Virus record (IMG/VR): IMGVR_UViG_3300033388_006651
Coordinates: 64,001 to 128,000 of that record
Source of the DNA: a virus
Strand: one strand, 5' to 3'
Length of the DNA stretch: 64,000 nt
Part shown: one piece after another, positions 1,950-21,757 of the stretch
Numbering within the stretch: position 1 is the first letter of the stretch
Layout: every line of letters begins with the position of its first letter
The notes under the pieces: generated by a model
Database searches by the model: none
The model's input: only the letters and a program-made list of their open reading frames with translations
Told to the model about the DNA's origin: nothing
Program-made: the position numbers and the translations under genes

Positions 1950-1982
1950 CTACAGCTTGGATTTCAGTTTCATGCAGAACAT
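1950..1982 (-). promoter_or_regulatory. Lys-rich leader ORF MFCMKLKSKL* followed by a long hairpin
   Basis: ATG TTC TGC ATG AAA CTG AAA TCC AAG CTG TAG between promoter and tRNA-Lys cluster. Confidence 0.65.
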
Positions 1983-1992
1983 GATGTGTTCC

Positions 1993-2021
1993 GTTCTAGG
2001 GGAGCAAGACGGCGAAGTCAA
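1993..2021 (-). promoter_or_regulatory. sigma70-like promoter of the tRNA-Lys cluster
   Basis: TTGACT-N17-TAGAAC. Confidence 0.65.
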
Positions 2022-4596: not shown

Positions 4597-5604
4597 TCAA
4601 GAAGGGCAGAACGTGACGGTGTAGTTCACCAGGCCATTGGTTTTGCGGCAGTTGAAGGTCGCGGCTTTGTCATCGAACATCCAGGCGTACACCTGGGGAC
4701 AGCTCGCTTTGACGTTGGCGATGTAGCTCTGGCTCGTCGCATCCCAGGCCCGAGCTTTGTTGCTGTCCCAGGGGTTGCAGGTCTGGCCCTCCGGGTTGGG
4801 AGGGGTGCTGTAGGGAGAGCACCCGTAGGCGCACTTGGCGTCCCCACAAACGATCGGTTTCGACATCGAGCACGAGCAGCACAGCTTCGTCTGAGTGCTC
4901 GCAGGGTCCCCGCTGTTGACCGCGTTCTGGCACGGGCTCCAGCAGCTATCCCCTCCGGCGCTCAGACCACTGGGGCACGTCGGGGTCGAGGTGCAGCCCG
5001 ACACCGTGCACCACGGAGCCTGGAGACCAGGATCGGGTACGGGGTTGAAGGTCCCAGCAACGGCCACGATGGCGACAGGCTCGCTCCACCCGTCCACGAA
5101 GCTCACGTCGTAGGTGTCGTACGGACCCAGTCCTCCCATGGCATCGAAGGTGAACTCGGCGATCCCCACGGGAGCTTTCCCCGAGTAGGCGCACTCGAGC
5201 CCGAAGGTCTTGTTGTCCGAGGTGAGGCACGATCCGCTGGTGCAGCACGGCGTGAAGCCGTCGCACAGGTTCTGGTTGTTGAAGGTGCAACCGGTACGGG
5301 GCCAGATGCGACCGCTCCATCCCACGTCCACTTGGAGGGTCGTGGTGTCGGTGCCAGATCCGGCCGCTCCCATCTCCCAGCCACCGTTGTTGAGCCCGCT
5401 GAACCCGCTGTTGCCGACCGAGCCGACCCACACAGAGCTGGTGCACTTGTTGACGAAGTTCACCGTGTGCGTGGTCGGCGGGGTCCCCATGTCCAGTTTG
5501 GCCACTTCCGTGGGGGGATCAACGGCTGCTTCGCCGTCGGATCCTTTACAGGCAACCAGGGCCAGAGAGAACGCACCGAGGGACCAGAGTTTGCGAGCCA
5601 TCAC
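4597..5604 (-). CDS. thaumatin-like (PR-5 family) lipoprotein
   Basis: FVNKC..VWVG, GRIWPRTGC, EFTF, YDVSFVDG, CWSPC, CPQVYAWMFDD; LVAC lipobox. Confidence 0.9.
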   Translation of the reverse strand: MMARKLWSLGAFSLALVACKGSDGEAAVDPPTEVAKLDMGTPPTTHTVNFVNKCTSSVWVGSVGNSGFSGLNNGGWEMGAAGSGTDTTTLQVDVGWSGRIWPRTGCTFNNQNLCDGFTPCCTSGSCLTSDNKTFGLECAYSGKAPVGIAEFTFDAMGGLGPYDTYDVSFVDGWSEPVAIVAVAGTFNPVPDPGLQAPWCTVSGCTSTPTCPSGLSAGGDSCWSPCQNAVNSGDPASTQTKLCCSCSMSKPIVCGDAKCAYGCSPYSTPPNPEGQTCNPWDSNKARAWDATSQSYIANVKASCPQVYAWMFDDKAATFNCRKTNGLVNYTVTFCPS

Positions 5605-5638
5605 TCAAGGAGGTCCTCATAGGGGTAAAAATGATGAC

Positions 5639-6844
5639 ATGCTCGTCCTGTTCCCGTCTGACCCTTTTGAGACCTACAAGCCCGAGCCGGACTACGTCCA
5701 GGAGATCGAGATCGCAAAAGAGTGCGGCCACGAGGTTGCCTTCATCCATTGGGAAGCCCTGGTGAACGATGACGACGCTGCCGCGGCCATCAGGAAGGTT
5801 CCTGTTTTCGAGGATTCCACCCCTGCCATCTACCGGGGTTGGATGCTGACCTCCGAGCAGTACGAGAAGCTCTACGCAGAGCTCCAGATCCATGACGTTG
5901 ATCTGTTGACCACTCCCGACGCCTACCGTAAGGCCCATGAGTTCCCTGGGTGGTACTTGGAGATCCCGAAAGCGACTCCGGCGTCGGCGATCATCCAGAA
6001 GCATGAGATCAGCATGGAGAGGCTGCTCAGCAGGGCCAAGGAGATGCTCGAACAGTACGAGCACGGCATCATCATCAAGGACTACGTGAAAAGTCGGAAG
6101 CACGAGTGGGAGGAGGCGTGCTTCATCCCCGATATGTCCAAAGCTGAGGTGGTGATCGCCAACTTCCTCGAGCGCCAGGGTGACGCTCTCCAAGGCGGCG
6201 TTGTGCTCCGGGAGTTCGTGCCGCTCAAGTCGATCGGTAAGCACCCTGACTCGGGGATGCCAATGGGCGAGGAGTTCCGCATCTTCTGGATGAACGGTCG
6301 AGTGGCCGCCGCTGCGGAGTACTGGCCTTCCGAGTTCTACATCGGTGAGGAGCGTGAAGATGAGAACGCAGGTGACGGGAGCACGTACCGTGTGCCTCAT
6401 GCCCTGAGCACTCTCCCCGATCCACAGTCGCTTCTCGAACTCCTCGAAAACATCGACAACCCGTTCGTCTCGATGGACCTTGCGCGTGCCGAGGATGGTG
6501 AGTGGTTCGTCATGGAGATCGGCGACGGTCAGGTCTCTGGGCTCCCGCGCCCCAAGCTCGATGCCCGGCTCATTTACAGCCGGCTCGATCGGTTGCTCGG
6601 GCCTCCTGGGCTTGCCTCGGACGCGACACCGATGACCCAGGCACAGTTCGCCGGTATGACGTGCCACGCCGAAGGCTGCGACCACACCGGCCACGACACC
6701 GAGATGTACCTGCACCCCAAGTGCCACGTCGGTTCTCCGACCTGGGCGATTTACGAGGACGGCGTCATCAACGTGAAGTGTGCCGAGTGCAAGACGCTCG
6801 TGGTCAGAATCGCGGTTGACCCCGGTACGGTCGTCGAAGATTAG
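5639..6844 (+). CDS. ATP-grasp protein (R2K-like) with C-terminal Cys/His domain
   Basis: IYRGWML, IIKDYVKSRKHEW.EACFI, EFRIF, MDLA..EIGDGQVSG; start reassigned to ATG 5639. Confidence 0.75.
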   Translation: MLVLFPSDPFETYKPEPDYVQEIEIAKECGHEVAFIHWEALVNDDDAAAAIRKVPVFEDSTPAIYRGWMLTSEQYEKLYAELQIHDVDLLTTPDAYRKAHEFPGWYLEIPKATPASAIIQKHEISMERLLSRAKEMLEQYEHGIIIKDYVKSRKHEWEEACFIPDMSKAEVVIANFLERQGDALQGGVVLREFVPLKSIGKHPDSGMPMGEEFRIFWMNGRVAAAAEYWPSEFYIGEEREDENAGDGSTYRVPHALSTLPDPQSLLELLENIDNPFVSMDLARAEDGEWFVMEIGDGQVSGLPRPKLDARLIYSRLDRLLGPPGLASDATPMTQAQFAGMTCHAEGCDHTGHDTEMYLHPKCHVGSPTWAIYEDGVINVKCAECKTLVVRIAVDPGTVVED

Positions 6845-7119: not shown

Positions 7120-7148
7120 TTGACTCGGCGTCTTAGTCCGCGTACACA
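7120..7148 (+). promoter_or_regulatory. sigma70-like promoter of the main tRNA operon
   Basis: TTGACT-N17-TACACA. Confidence 0.65.
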
Positions 7149-7195
7149 GAAATGGTCGCCGTCCCTTGGCAGGAACGCGACTCAAAGTCCCCGCC

Positions 7196-7288
7196 ATGAA
7201 ACACTCCACGACATACACAGCTACGACAACGACTACGGTCGTCGTGGCCGTCGTATTGCCCATTATGGGCGATATGACCTCGTGTTGA
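7196..7288 (+). promoter_or_regulatory. Thr/Val-rich leader peptide MKHSTTYTATTTTTVVVAVVLPIMGDMTSC*
   Basis: 9 Thr and 5 Val in 30 codons; followed by hairpin TTCCCGGCG/CGCCGGGAA. Confidence 0.75.
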
Positions 7289-7380
7289 GCATTTCCCGGC
7301 GTTGACCAAAACATCAAACGGCGCCGGGAACCCCCAAAGGGTTTGCTTCGCACGTTCAAAGGCCACGCTGGCTCCCATTC

Positions 7381-7456
7381 GCCGGTGTAGCTCAATTGGT
7401 AGAGCACTGGTTTTGTAAACCAGGGGTTGCGGGTTCGAGTCCCATTACCGGCTCCA
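7381..7456 (+). tRNA. tRNA-Thr(UGU)
   Basis: CTGGT TTTGTAA ACCAG; CCA end. Confidence 0.95.
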
Positions 7457-7487: not shown

Positions 7488-7562
7488 GCCTTTGTAGCTC
7501 AGTGGTAGAGCAGCTCATTCGTAACGAGCAGGTCGTGGGTTCGATTCCCACCTTGGGCTCCA
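7488..7562 (+). tRNA. tRNA-Thr(CGU)
   Basis: TTCGTAA loop; CCA end. Confidence 0.92.
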
Positions 7563-7564
7563 AG

Positions 7565-7603
7565 CACCAACACCAACACCAACACCAACACCAACACCAT
7601 CAC
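7565..7603 (+). repeat. (CACCAA)n hexamer tandem repeat between tRNA-Thr genes
   Basis: caccaa x5 followed by caccatcac. Confidence 0.9.
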
Positions 7604-7611
7604 CGACATAA

Positions 7612-7686
7612 GCCCTTGTAGCTCAGTGGAAGAGCGCTTCCTTGGTAAGGAAGAAGTCACGAGTTCGATTCTCGTCTTGGGCTCCA
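7612..7686 (+). tRNA. tRNA-Thr(GGU)
   Basis: CTTCC TTGGTAA GGAAG; CCA end. Confidence 0.93.
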
Positions 7687-7937: not shown

Positions 7938-7998
7938 AAACAACCGATTTTTCTCAACCCCAACTTCAACCCCCAACGAACAGAAAGGACCGAGCACG

Positions 7999-8136
7999 AT
8001 GAACATCGAAAACGATGACTGCGATGATGTAGATGATACCTACGGAGCAGTGGCGCAGTTGGTAGCGCACTCGGTTGTCAGCCGAAAGGTCGCCGGTTCA
8101 AGTCCGGTCTGTTCCGCCAAGGGGGTGTTGGTCTAG
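7999..8136 (+). promoter_or_regulatory. Asp-rich leader ORF MNIENDDCDDVDDTY... reading through tRNA-Asp
   Basis: GAAAGGA RBS; 6 Asp in 8 codons directly before tRNA-Asp; stop inside the second tRNA-Asp. Confidence 0.75.
8044..8119 (+). tRNA. tRNA-Asp(GUC)
   Basis: TTGTCAG loop; GCCA end. Confidence 0.92.
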
Positions 8137-8422: not shown

Positions 8423-9097
8423 GTGAAGCCGGACAAACAAAAAGAGGCGCGTAGACTGCGTAAGCAGGGCCTTTCTTTGAGTGAGATCGTTACCAAAATT
8501 GGATGCGCAAAAAGTTCGGTTAGCCGCTGGACCCGGGATATCCCTCTCACTAAGACTCAAGTCAAAAACCTTCGACGAAAGGAAGATCAAGGACGACTTA
8601 AAGGCCGTATTGCAGCCGCTACCCATCCCAACTCTCCGAAACAGGTGTGGGCTAAAAAACGAGATGAAGCACGTCAAAAAGGGCACGAAGAGATTTCCCG
8701 GATCGATGACATCTCTCTCAAAATACTCATCGCGGCACTGTACTGGGGGGAAGGGTCAAAGGGTCGTAACAGTTTTTCCATAGCGAACACGGACCCTGCA
8801 ATGGTCCGCCTTATTGCCGCCTTTCTTCGAAAACATTGTCAAGTTCCTGAAGAGCGCCTTCGTTTTCGCGTCTACATTCATCCTCATTTGAGTCTCCGAA
8901 AAGCTCGTATTTACTGGGCTAAAATTGCAGGAACCTCCCCTAAAAATATCGCATCCACCACCGCTGTAAGCTCAGCTAGCCAAGGAAAGAAGGACTCGTG
9001 CCCTTACGGCACTTTTCAAATCACGTACTGTGACACCCTGTTTCGGTCTCGCATAGAAGGCTGGATGGATGCCTTGAAAGAACAGATACCGGGTTAG
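8423..9097 (+). CDS. HTH plus LAGLIDADG-like endonuclease inserted in the tRNA-Val cluster
   Basis: N-terminal HTH (GLSLSEI..KSSVSRW), ALYWGEG..F.IANTDP motif; more AT-rich codons; stop lies inside tRNA-Val(UAC). Confidence 0.7.
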   Translation: MKPDKQKEARRLRKQGLSLSEIVTKIGCAKSSVSRWTRDIPLTKTQVKNLRRKEDQGRLKGRIAAATHPNSPKQVWAKKRDEARQKGHEEISRIDDISLKILIAALYWGEGSKGRNSFSIANTDPAMVRLIAAFLRKHCQVPEERLRFRVYIHPHLSLRKARIYWAKIAGTSPKNIASTTAVSSASQGKKDSCPYGTFQITYCDTLFRSRIEGWMDALKEQIPG

Positions 9098-9161: not shown

Positions 9162-9201
9162 GACCTCAAACCTCAACCTCTAACCACGAAAGGAACCGAC
9201 C

Positions 9202-9264
9202 ATGGAAAAAGAAGACAGCGACATTAGCGACATTATCTACTCGGCCCGTGGTCCAGTCTGGTAA
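9202..9264 (+). promoter_or_regulatory. Ile-containing leader ORF MEKEDSDISDIIYSARGPVW* reading into tRNA-Ile
   Basis: GAAAGGA RBS; ATT, ATT, ATC codons just before tRNA-Ile(GAU); stop in the D-loop. Confidence 0.65.
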
Positions 9265-9499: not shown

Positions 9500-9505
9500 C
9501 TAAGG

Positions 9506-9663
9506 GCAGTAGAAGTCTGCTTGCGAAATATCTCCCTTCACCGGGAAGAGACGCTAGCGAACAAAACTTCATCCTCGCAACGGAGTTGAGGGGAGAGCAG
9601 TAGGAGATCTGCTTGCGACAATAGGCCCCGTAACTGGGTATCGAAGATAGCGAACAAAACTCC
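9506..9663 (+). ncRNA. tandem pair of a structured RNA motif (GCAGTAG..TCTGCTTGCGA-hairpin-TAGCGAACAAAACT)
   Basis: Two copies, 9506-9570 and 9597-9663, with conserved flanks and different central hairpins. Confidence 0.65.
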
Positions 9664-9672
9664 AACACTTGA

Positions 9673-14280: not shown

Positions 14281-15243
14281 TTGGTCTACGATCAAACGGT
14301 GCCAGAAGATCTCGACCTGGATGCTCTCGTGAGCCGGTACGAGGAGGGGGCGAGTGCCGCTTCTCTCGGCCGGGATTTCGGGGTCAGCACCTGGACGGTT
14401 CTGAACCGTCTCAGGGGTGCTGGGATCCGTATTCGTTCCAACAAGGAGCAGAACGAGAAACGGCTCGATCTGGATGAGGTGCAACAGCGGCGTCTCGTTG
14501 AGATCGTAGACGGGCTCCTCCTTGGAGATGGGTCCATTGATCCCAAAGGGAGTTTGCGCATCGAACAGACTCAGGACCATTTGGGTTGGTTCGATTCGAT
14601 CCAACAAGCCCTTGGGAGTGTCGGGGCGGTTTCGCGACGCACCCCTGTCGCACCTCGCGTCCGTTTCATTAAGGATCATGAGGCGCACGGCAAAGGAGGC
14701 GCCGTCTTTTACACGCCCTGCTACGTTGAGCTCCAAGAGCAGCGGCAGCGGTGGTATCCGAAAGGAAAGAAGCGCGTCCCCGAGGATGTGCTCCTCACGC
14801 CTCTAAGCATTGCCTACTGGTTCTGTGGGGATGGTTCCTATGACAAGCCGGGATCGCTCGTGTTCTACACCAACTCTTTTTTCAAGAAGGAGACAGAGCG
14901 TTTGGCTCGGGGCCTTACCAAGCTCGGTGTTCGGGCCCGGTGTCGTCCTGTGGGACAACACCGATACCGCGAATGGAAAATCCACATCCTTCGGCGTGAC
15001 GATGCCCTGCGGCTTCGTGAACTGATGGGGGATCATGTGCCGGAGTGTTTCCAGTACAAGTTCGTATACGTCCGAGCGGCCATTCCACCAGGTTCTACGA
15101 CCGCTAAGCTGACTTTCACGCAGGCCCAGGAAATCCGGGAGCGTACAAAGAACGGGGAAACCCAGACGGCGCTGGCCAAGGAATTCGGGGTCTCCCAAAC
15201 CGCGATCCGCCAGATCGTTCGCGGGAAAGTCCACAAGCCATGA
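14281..15243 (+). CDS. free-standing LAGLIDADG homing endonuclease with HTH domains
   Basis: GLLLGDGS and AYWFCGDGS motifs; WYPKGKK.VP. Confidence 0.85.
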   Translation: MVYDQTVPEDLDLDALVSRYEEGASAASLGRDFGVSTWTVLNRLRGAGIRIRSNKEQNEKRLDLDEVQQRRLVEIVDGLLLGDGSIDPKGSLRIEQTQDHLGWFDSIQQALGSVGAVSRRTPVAPRVRFIKDHEAHGKGGAVFYTPCYVELQEQRQRWYPKGKKRVPEDVLLTPLSIAYWFCGDGSYDKPGSLVFYTNSFFKKETERLARGLTKLGVRARCRPVGQHRYREWKIHILRRDDALRLRELMGDHVPECFQYKFVYVRAAIPPGSTTAKLTFTQAQEIRERTKNGETQTALAKEFGVSQTAIRQIVRGKVHKP

Positions 15244-21574: not shown

Positions 21575-21602
21575 TTGACTCTGCGTCTGAGGCGAGTACA
21601 TT
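21575..21602 (+). promoter_or_regulatory. sigma70-like promoter of the His/Phe tRNA cluster
   Basis: TTGACT-N16-TACATT. Confidence 0.6.
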
Positions 21603-21680
21603 CGGTTTCAAGGTAACTCTCATGTTGACGCAAGCACATACCCAGCTCCCCGATGCGGGAGCCGACTACAACACCATCAT

Positions 21681-21757
21681 GGTGTCCGTAGCTCAGTTGG
21701 TAGAGCGTTCGCTTGTGACGCGAGAGGCCGCGGGTTCAAACCCCGTCGGACACCCCA
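21681..21757 (+). tRNA. tRNA-His(GUG)
   Basis: G-1/C73, TTCGC TTGTGAC GCGAG, CCA end. Confidence 0.95.

Follow-up and report, generated by a model that had tools for sequence, protein, structure and literature searches.

The 64,000-nt stretch of viral DNA analysed here (the window, whose plus-strand numbering is used throughout) carries, directly before a series of tRNA genes, a short open reading frame rich in Thr codons. We interpret it as a translated leader mini-gene that would act as a ribosome-read sensor of Thr-tRNA supply, an assignment drawn from sequence comparison and RNA folding to which a probability of roughly 0.55 is given. Comparison of its homologues shows that the ORF, the Thr codons and the associated RNA structures are under selection. 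The same comparison indicates that the leader is specific for Thr and is not a master list of the operon, because Thr codons are universal among the homologues, Val codons are variable and structural, and Ile and Asp codons fall below background.

Genomic context and the leader ORF

The window belongs to a 146.8-kb IMG/VR contig (~59% GC) whose CheckV completeness of 28% points to an origin from a huge phage. A marine-sediment sequencing run in which every sampled word of the contig occurs may be its source, and no RNA run was listed among the public runs that contain it. The 20 tRNAs found by ARAGORN in the contig are all inside the window. The leader occupies a 330-nt gap that has a minus-strand ORF on one side and the first tRNA gene on the other. 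The tRNA series starts with tRNA-Thr(UGU) (7381-7456), tRNA-Thr(CGU) (7488-7562) and tRNA-Thr(GGU) (7612-7686), all on the plus strand and detected by both ARAGORN and Rfam. Past this trio ARAGORN places two tRNAs for Asp, the Val isoacceptors CAC, GAC and UAC, two tRNAs for Ile and three for Met. An Rfam scan of the region at gathering level returned tRNAs only.

The leader is preceded by a sigma-70-like promoter (7120-7148) composed of a -35 element TTGACT (7120-7125), a 17-nt spacer and a -10 element TACACA (7143-7148), with an A-rich tract upstream of it. A consensus promoter scanner made no call at this site. The promoter position is conserved across all homologues as TTGAC(T/G/A)-N17-TA.... 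and the pattern TTGAC-N17-19-TA[CG]A has only three matches in the 146.8 kb, each 5' of a tRNA cluster: at the Thr leader, at the tRNA-His cluster (21575) and at a divergent tRNA-Lys cluster (2021, minus strand). Since this rare pattern sits directly before the leader, the latter heads what is probably one operon extending from tRNA-Thr through tRNA-Met.

The leader ORF (7196-7288, plus strand) begins with the ATG at 7196, not at 7197, and has 30 codons followed by TGA; it is otherwise as written in an earlier note on this DNA. Nine of the 30 codons specify Thr (ACG four times, ACA three times, ACT and ACC once each) and five specify Val (GTC three times, GTG and GTA once each), a count that bears out both codon lists of that note. 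The Thr content is improbable against the 7.1% Thr of the phage (P = 1.7e-4), while the Val content does not differ significantly from the phage background (P = 0.09). Among the 603 short ATG-ORFs (20-60 aa) of the 146.8-kb contig this ORF is alone in reaching at least 30% Thr. Its Thr codons are grouped at codons 5, 6 and 8 and then at 10-14 (7208-7237), and these are the presumed sensing codons. The Shine-Dalgarno sequence is weak (GGA/GAG, ~10-14 nt 5' of the AUG). Accessibility within the leader is highest at its start, with a mean unpaired probability of 0.5-0.8 from -15 to +24 of the AUG versus 0.1-0.3 downstream, and the single-stranded segment comprises the start region and the first Thr cluster.

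Other features of the region are recorded here. The spacer between tRNA-Thr(CGU) and tRNA-Thr(GGU) contains a hexanucleotide microsatellite (CCAACA eight times, 7560-7608). A 224-aa ORF of lower GC (8423-9097), coding for an N-terminal HTH (weak Pfam matches), lies between tRNA-Val(GAC) and tRNA-Val(UAC) and overlaps the latter with its 3' end; it may be a mobile insertion, given the LAGLIDADG endonuclease genes present at 14281 and 15874. Two direct repeat units (GCUUGCGA... / ...AGCGAACAAAAC) are found at 9501-9672 between two tRNA-Met genes. Upstream of the leader are the genes for a thaumatin-family protein (4597-5604, minus strand) and for an ATP-grasp protein (R2K clade 3, R2K_3; 5636-6844, plus strand), the second of them ~350 nt away. 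Synteny of these two genes with the leader was not found in relatives, and the ATP-grasp gene has no relatives in viral contigs and no blastn match in INPHARED.

Homologues and selection on the reading frame

Via a vWA/Ro-like protein encoded 3' of the array, syntenic arrays were located in further huge-phage contigs, the longest of 497 kb, and their region 5' of tRNA-Thr(UGU) aligns with the window leader, ORF included. Viral, metagenome and genome collections were then searched with patterns made from two conserved motifs. The patterns took in the loop motif of hairpin A and the stop region, that is the 5' strand of stem F (both described below). The search yielded 39 true homologues (29 distinct DNAs, ~25 distinct peptides) from viral and metagenome contigs; they form one related clade found by two fixed motifs, and all counts among them are of non-independent events. 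Another 74 pattern matches (41 metagenome or viral, 33 genome) have neither such an ORF nor a match to the structure model, and a reading of them as decayed or broken homologues was rejected in favour of chance matches. According to ARAGORN the next gene after the leader is tRNA-Thr in 27 of the 29 distinct homologues, 76-111 nt past the stop, so that a conserved mini-ORF enriched in codons of the tRNA directly downstream is found in these 27; the isoacceptor is UGU in 26 and CGU in one.

One more copy, a near-identical Thr leader with the same Lys/Thr/Asp/Val tRNA array, is present at ~1.8-2.0 kb of a 72-kb contig (L122) binned into a Gemmatimonadota MAG. The array is phage-type and the contig is probably a phage fragment, the binning being at most a weak hint of the host. 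The covariance model R1 (see below) had no match in three more distant relatives, one of which is complete, and a DNA-similarity look-up of tRNA-Thr in these three was unproductive; the complete distant relative of 442 kb is without the leader element.

The ATG, the stop and the frame are retained in 39/39 homologues, with a length of 29-32 codons, and the ATG is preceded by an invariant CGCC in every one. The indels within the ORF fall at eight gap positions, each of them a multiple of 3, whereas in the flanks every class modulo 3 occurs (11 lengths of the 5' UTR, 17 lengths of the stop-to-tRNA distance). Stop codons interrupt frame 0 in 0/29 of the sequences, frame +1 in 29/29 and frame +2 in 5/29. 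Clustered codons for the sensed amino acid, as in leaders of the thrL type, are found throughout: each of the 39 ORFs has 7-10 Thr codons, mostly at codons 4-14, and Thr amounts to 25.7% of leader codons versus 7.1% in phage genes (3.6-fold). Thr occupies codon 5 in 27/27 distinct ORFs, where the third base varies (ACG, ACA or ACC). For codons 2-15 the entropy at the three codon positions is 0.69, 0.62 and 0.89, the third being the most variable; from codon 16 on no codon-position periodicity was found. The rare codon ACA represents 29% of leader Thr codons versus 8.9% in the long ORFs of the phage (3.3-fold enrichment), and it is read only by the UGU isoacceptor, which is the first tRNA downstream.

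Mini-ORFs preceding other tRNA blocks

Like the Thr leader, mini-ORFs rich in cognate codons are located immediately before the matching tRNA blocks for Asp, Ile and Lys, and in each of these three families the cognate residue is the most enriched one. The Asp leader (7983-8043, ATG at 7999) has a GAAAGGA ribosome site and six Asp among 15 codons, and it reads into tRNA-Asp (8044) with no stop beforehand. Asp runs are conserved in the relatives L002, L003, L008, L011 and L016; in 6/6 loci, window included, the mini-ORF has a strong GAAAGGAG ribosome site and 5-8 Asp codons and enters the first tRNA-Asp. The Ile mini-ORF (9190-9264, ATG at 9202) overlaps the start of tRNA-Ile and is kept in relatives, the family featuring 2-4 Ile codons, a strong GAAAGGAG site and an extension into tRNA-Ile. 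The Lys mini-ORF (1950-2021, minus strand, at 1982) follows the promoter and has ten codons, three of them for Lys; its UAG abuts a conserved hairpin ~20 nt before tRNA-Lys(CUU), and it is also kept in relatives.

The Lys leader is laid out like the Thr leader, with a promoter, an ORF whose stop adjoins a hairpin, a spacer and the tRNA. In the Asp and Ile ORFs, by contrast, the Shine-Dalgarno sequences are strong and reading goes straight into the tRNA body, with no stop before the tRNA 5' end; the Thr leader, of greater length and with much more structure, stops short of the tRNA. A third sigma-70-like promoter was noted 5' of tRNA-His (21575-21681). Three consecutive His codons are found just 5' of this tRNA; they are out of frame with the only ATG in the window and in frame in L003.

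RNA structure of the leader

The region 7120-7380 folds far more strongly than shuffled sequences (z = -4.09). When 15 homologues were folded singly, the same arrangement came out each time: hairpin A is followed by a start region left open, then by hairpins B and C, and last by stem F, inside which hairpins D and E lie. RNAalifold run on the raw MAFFT alignment gave a poor consensus and was replaced by hand-mapped helices and a covariance model. Note that helix D is partly mis-registered in alignment A4.

Hairpin A (7154-7182), at the predicted 5' end of the transcript, exposes a 7-nt loop CUUGGCA (7165-7171) closed by CC/GG. Its closing pairs are 95% paired, with U-A replaced by G-C in six sequences, and its lower stem differs in sequence by clade with pairing retained. 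The invariance of the loop is no evidence for its function because the loop motif was part of the search pattern. The loop could pair with the start region (UGGC:GCCA) or with the stop region (7 bp, three of them G-U), through motifs that are invariant and partly fixed by the search pattern. Reading the loop as a sigma-54 promoter element is ruled out by spacing, and as part of a T-box by the tRNA 3' ends.

Hairpin B (7221-7247) has the second Thr cluster as its 5' arm and the run of Val codons as its 3' arm. The apical helix is 96% paired and 4/4 of its pairs are changed on both sides in some homologues. These changes (e.g. CGACC/GGUCG to CCGCC/GGCGG or CCGUC/GACGG) alter the encoded amino acids, for instance from Thr-Thr/Val-Val to Ala-Ala/Ala-Val, and therefore it is the RNA rather than the protein that is selected at hairpin B. 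Hairpin C (7250-7278, 13-bp stem) covers codons 19-28; 7/8 pairs of its lower helix are altered on both sides in some sequence, and in the L018 and L044 clades its arms are wholly different with the hairpin retained. In the codon-true alignment A5 the top of A together with B and C is 75.7% paired versus at most 46% with slid partners; 16 pairs have two-sided changes and 0/500 shuffles match the observed covariation.

The ORF ends inside a three-way junction (7279-7354) that is predicted in all 15 homologues folded alone and lies 25-45 nt upstream of tRNA-Thr(UGU). Stem F (7281-7291 with 7344-7354), whose 5' strand holds the Cys and stop codons, encloses hairpin D (7293-7330, arms 7293-7301 and 7322-7330) and hairpin E (7329-7344, arms 7329-7333 and 7339-7344), and the stop codon is within stem F in every homologue folded. 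With the covariance model R1, 80.6% of the F/D/E cells are paired versus at most 58% for slid partners, and 0/500 shuffles reach the covariation score. Hairpin D changes from GGCG/CGCC to GGUG/CACC in one clade; stem F shows one-sided changes (U-A to U-G), to which the inclusion of its 5' strand in the search pattern contributed. The earlier note had already recognized the arms of D and E, which share two bases, and regarded them as competing stems; they are side-by-side branches of the junction that coexist within stem F in all relatives. The folding of alternative structures that it had proposed was carried out with ribosome-masked sequences, and these noisy folds disclosed no consistent alternative to F/D/E beyond occlusion of the stop.

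The spacer that follows the junction contains the element GGCCACGCUGGC (7361-7372), a small hairpin; eight of its bases could form a duplex with the following tRNA at the 5' strand of the acceptor stem. In one subclade ~9 sequences give this duplex a z of roughly -2 or below, with variants that retain pairing, and it is absent from other clades (median z -1.3). Pairing of the spacer element with the acceptor strand may be part of the effector. In most relatives the 3' strand of stem F is UAGCUCAAC, nearly equal to the start of the tRNA-Thr D-arm UAGCUCAAU (7344-7354 and 7388-7396, respectively, in the window), and hence the stop-bearing 5' strand could also pair with the tRNA.

The main rival to the sensor reading is a non-coding 5' leader of the tRNA precursor that acts by structure alone. 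Its role would be in stabilisation, processing or antitermination of an operon that is not translated, and the ORF with its Thr codons would be a by-product of ACGAC/GUCGU hairpins. The strength of the fold fits this explanation, as do the compensatory changes in B, C and D that freely alter the encoded amino acids, the C-terminal half devoid of codon periodicity and the weak Shine-Dalgarno sequence. Owing to the palindromic nature of the region, a Thr/Val run is read on the minus strand as well, and the Thr richness could in part be structural, given that ACN repeats necessarily complement the GUN/NGU repeats found in hairpin B. A purely structural leader nevertheless does not account for the intact frame of all homologues with indels restricted to multiples of 3 between variable flanks, for the fixed ATG, for Thr codons that lie in an unpaired segment and vary freely at the third position, and for the parallel cognate-codon ORFs with strong Shine-Dalgarno sequences before tRNA-Asp and tRNA-Ile, and likewise the one before tRNA-Lys. 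We thus consider it unlikely, at about the level of one chance in a handful.

The product of the ORF could alternatively be a functional small peptide, either a Thr/Cys-rich precursor modified by the neighbouring ATP-grasp enzyme or a nascent arrest peptide (conserved D-T-T-S/P-C before UGA) that stalls the ribosome at the stop in response to a ligand. The nearby ATP-grasp gene and the good conservation of the C-terminal residues and of the UGA speak for it. That gene, however, is without relatives beside the leader of other phages, the peptide shows no conservation as protein in its middle part, the conserved C-terminal codons coincide exactly with arms of hairpin C and stem F, and the search pattern included the stop region, which together make a peptide function improbable.

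Specificity of the leader for Thr

The earlier note had proposed a master leader whose codons enumerate the tRNAs of the whole operon. This holds for Thr, whose codons are conserved, in frame and placed at the head of the operon after the promoter, and does not extend to Val, Ile or Asp. The number of Val codons ranges from 1 to 5 per ORF among the homologues (1.4-fold over background), and they arise as the complementary arm of the Thr-codon hairpin: in the clade of the window they coincide with two hairpin arms, 3' in B and 5' in C, i.e. the complement of ACGAC, and in other clades the same arms encode Ala, Gly, Met or Trp. The P-I-M-G-D tail, in which Ile, Met and Asp had been seen as further entries of the list, is the loop and 3' arm of hairpin C; none of the three residues is enriched and Ile and Asp are below background across the leader ORFs. 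A single leader for all operon tRNAs is also at odds with the leaders that the Asp, Ile and Lys blocks possess of their own.

The premature terminator that had been suggested after the leader is not there, as 7290-7380 contains no hairpin followed by a U tract, and no conserved U tract between leader and tRNA was found in the homologue alignments. Canonical intrinsic terminators are present elsewhere in the phage (33938-33968 and 36032-36050, one of them bidirectional), and thus the phage or its host uses terminators of the hairpin-plus-U type. A multivalent attenuator in which Thr and Val (plus Ile, Met and Asp) codons gate the whole operon via a terminator/antiterminator at 7293-7345 would agree with the Val run in the subclade of the window, with the Val tRNAs of the operon and with the position of the leader as first element after the only promoter of the array, but the inconstant Val codons, the under-represented Ile and Asp, the coexistence of D and E, the missing terminator and the separate leaders of the Asp and Ile blocks render it very improbable.

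Proposed mode of action

The reading that we favour, a ribosome-read sensor of Thr-tRNA supply, would operate as follows. Host RNA polymerase would start at the sigma-70-like promoter and produce a transcript opening with hairpin A and the accessible start site. Ribosomes, the leader being presumed to be translated, would meet two to four Thr codons at codons 4-7 and usually the second cluster at codons 10-14. The three tRNA-Thr isoacceptors whose genes come next read the codons ACA, ACG and ACC that the leader employs. The C-terminal half of the ORF, which has no conserved amino acids, would serve as RNA structure (B and C) with only its frame required, the frame being kept so that ribosomes end at a stop located within the 5' strand of the F/D/E junction.

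When Thr-tRNA is scarce the ribosome would stall early, and the junction and everything 3' of it would stay folded. When it is plentiful the ribosome would proceed, melting B and C and then, at the stop, the junction. The one robust contrast in the masked folds is between a ribosome that has reached the stop, where it has to melt stem F together with the base of D, and a ribosome waiting at the early Thr codons, which does not disturb B, C or the junction. The melted junction may result in less mature tRNA by way of precursor processing, stability or transcript elongation, the last in a Rho- or pause-dependent manner, and the net effect would be a supply-matching feedback. This proposed direction is modelled on the Asp and Ile leaders, in which a ribosome that does not stall would continue into the tRNA and unfold it. 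In the models the stalled and the untranslated leader share the same downstream fold, and for that reason the effector step is guesswork.

A broader proposition, which we hold tentatively and at somewhat less than even odds, is that each tRNA block of the clade (Thr, Asp, Ile, Lys and perhaps His) has a cognate-codon mini-ORF of its own, and that these mini-ORFs together form a series of ribosomal sensors specific for single isotypes. Each would report on the decoding of its codon family, e.g. after attack by host anticodon nucleases or under starvation, and adjust maturation or synthesis of the replacement tRNAs of the phage. The Thr unit would do so without a terminator, by ribosomal melting of the stop-bearing junction.

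Relation to known leaders and significance

Sensing by leader peptides is textbook knowledge for amino-acid operons. The phage leader resembles thrL, the leader of the thr operon of E. coli and Salmonella (RF00506; cf. hisL, leuL, pheL and ilvL), in having a short ORF that begins M-K-R/H and continues with a run of Thr codons, in the location of these codons in or beside the 5' arm of a hairpin, and in its position upstream of genes that raise the supply of charged Thr-tRNA, ribosome speed being read as supply. Hairpin B of the predicted fold would fit a 1:2 element with codons in arm 1. Unlike thrL, the phage leader precedes tRNAs and not biosynthetic enzymes, lacks both a U-tract terminator hairpin and any evident 2:3 antiterminator, and has its stop buried in a three-way junction. 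The Rfam Thr_leader model gave no match even at E up to 10, and a relaxed Rfam search returned a single chance match (E = 1.3) on the opposite strand. The leader thus resembles leader-peptide attenuators in design but has neither their terminator nor a match in Rfam, and a 2:3 alternative could not be demonstrated for it.

The pheM leader of pheST and the T-box riboswitches offer a further parallel, as they place components of the tRNA supply chain under the control of the cognate tRNA. PheM uses a classical terminator and controls a synthetase, and T-boxes bind uncharged tRNA directly, without ribosomes. Assignment of the phage leader to the T-box riboswitches was rejected: there is no specifier or T-box motif and no Rfam match, and the UGGC of the hairpin A loop mismatches the UCCA ends of the phage tRNA-Thr. 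In pyrBI, in the translation attenuation of ermC/cat and in tnaC, where a single ribosome stands on a short leader ORF determines whether an RNA structure further downstream can form, much as proposed here. Those leaders sense UTP, antibiotics or tryptophan and control mRNAs, whereas the signal of the phage leader would be Thr-tRNA and its target a tRNA precursor. A full-text literature search found no paper on leader ORFs controlling tRNA genes, phage or cellular.

The leader element is compact (~260 nt) and directly testable in a reporter. If the proposed function is correct, the Thr unit would be an attenuator-like device without a terminator, which points to control at the level of precursor folding or processing. 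The tRNA arrays of these phages would then not be passive codon supplements and would be regulated isotype by isotype through decoding itself. This would bear on why huge phages carry many tRNAs and on the ways in which they might counter host defences that target tRNA.
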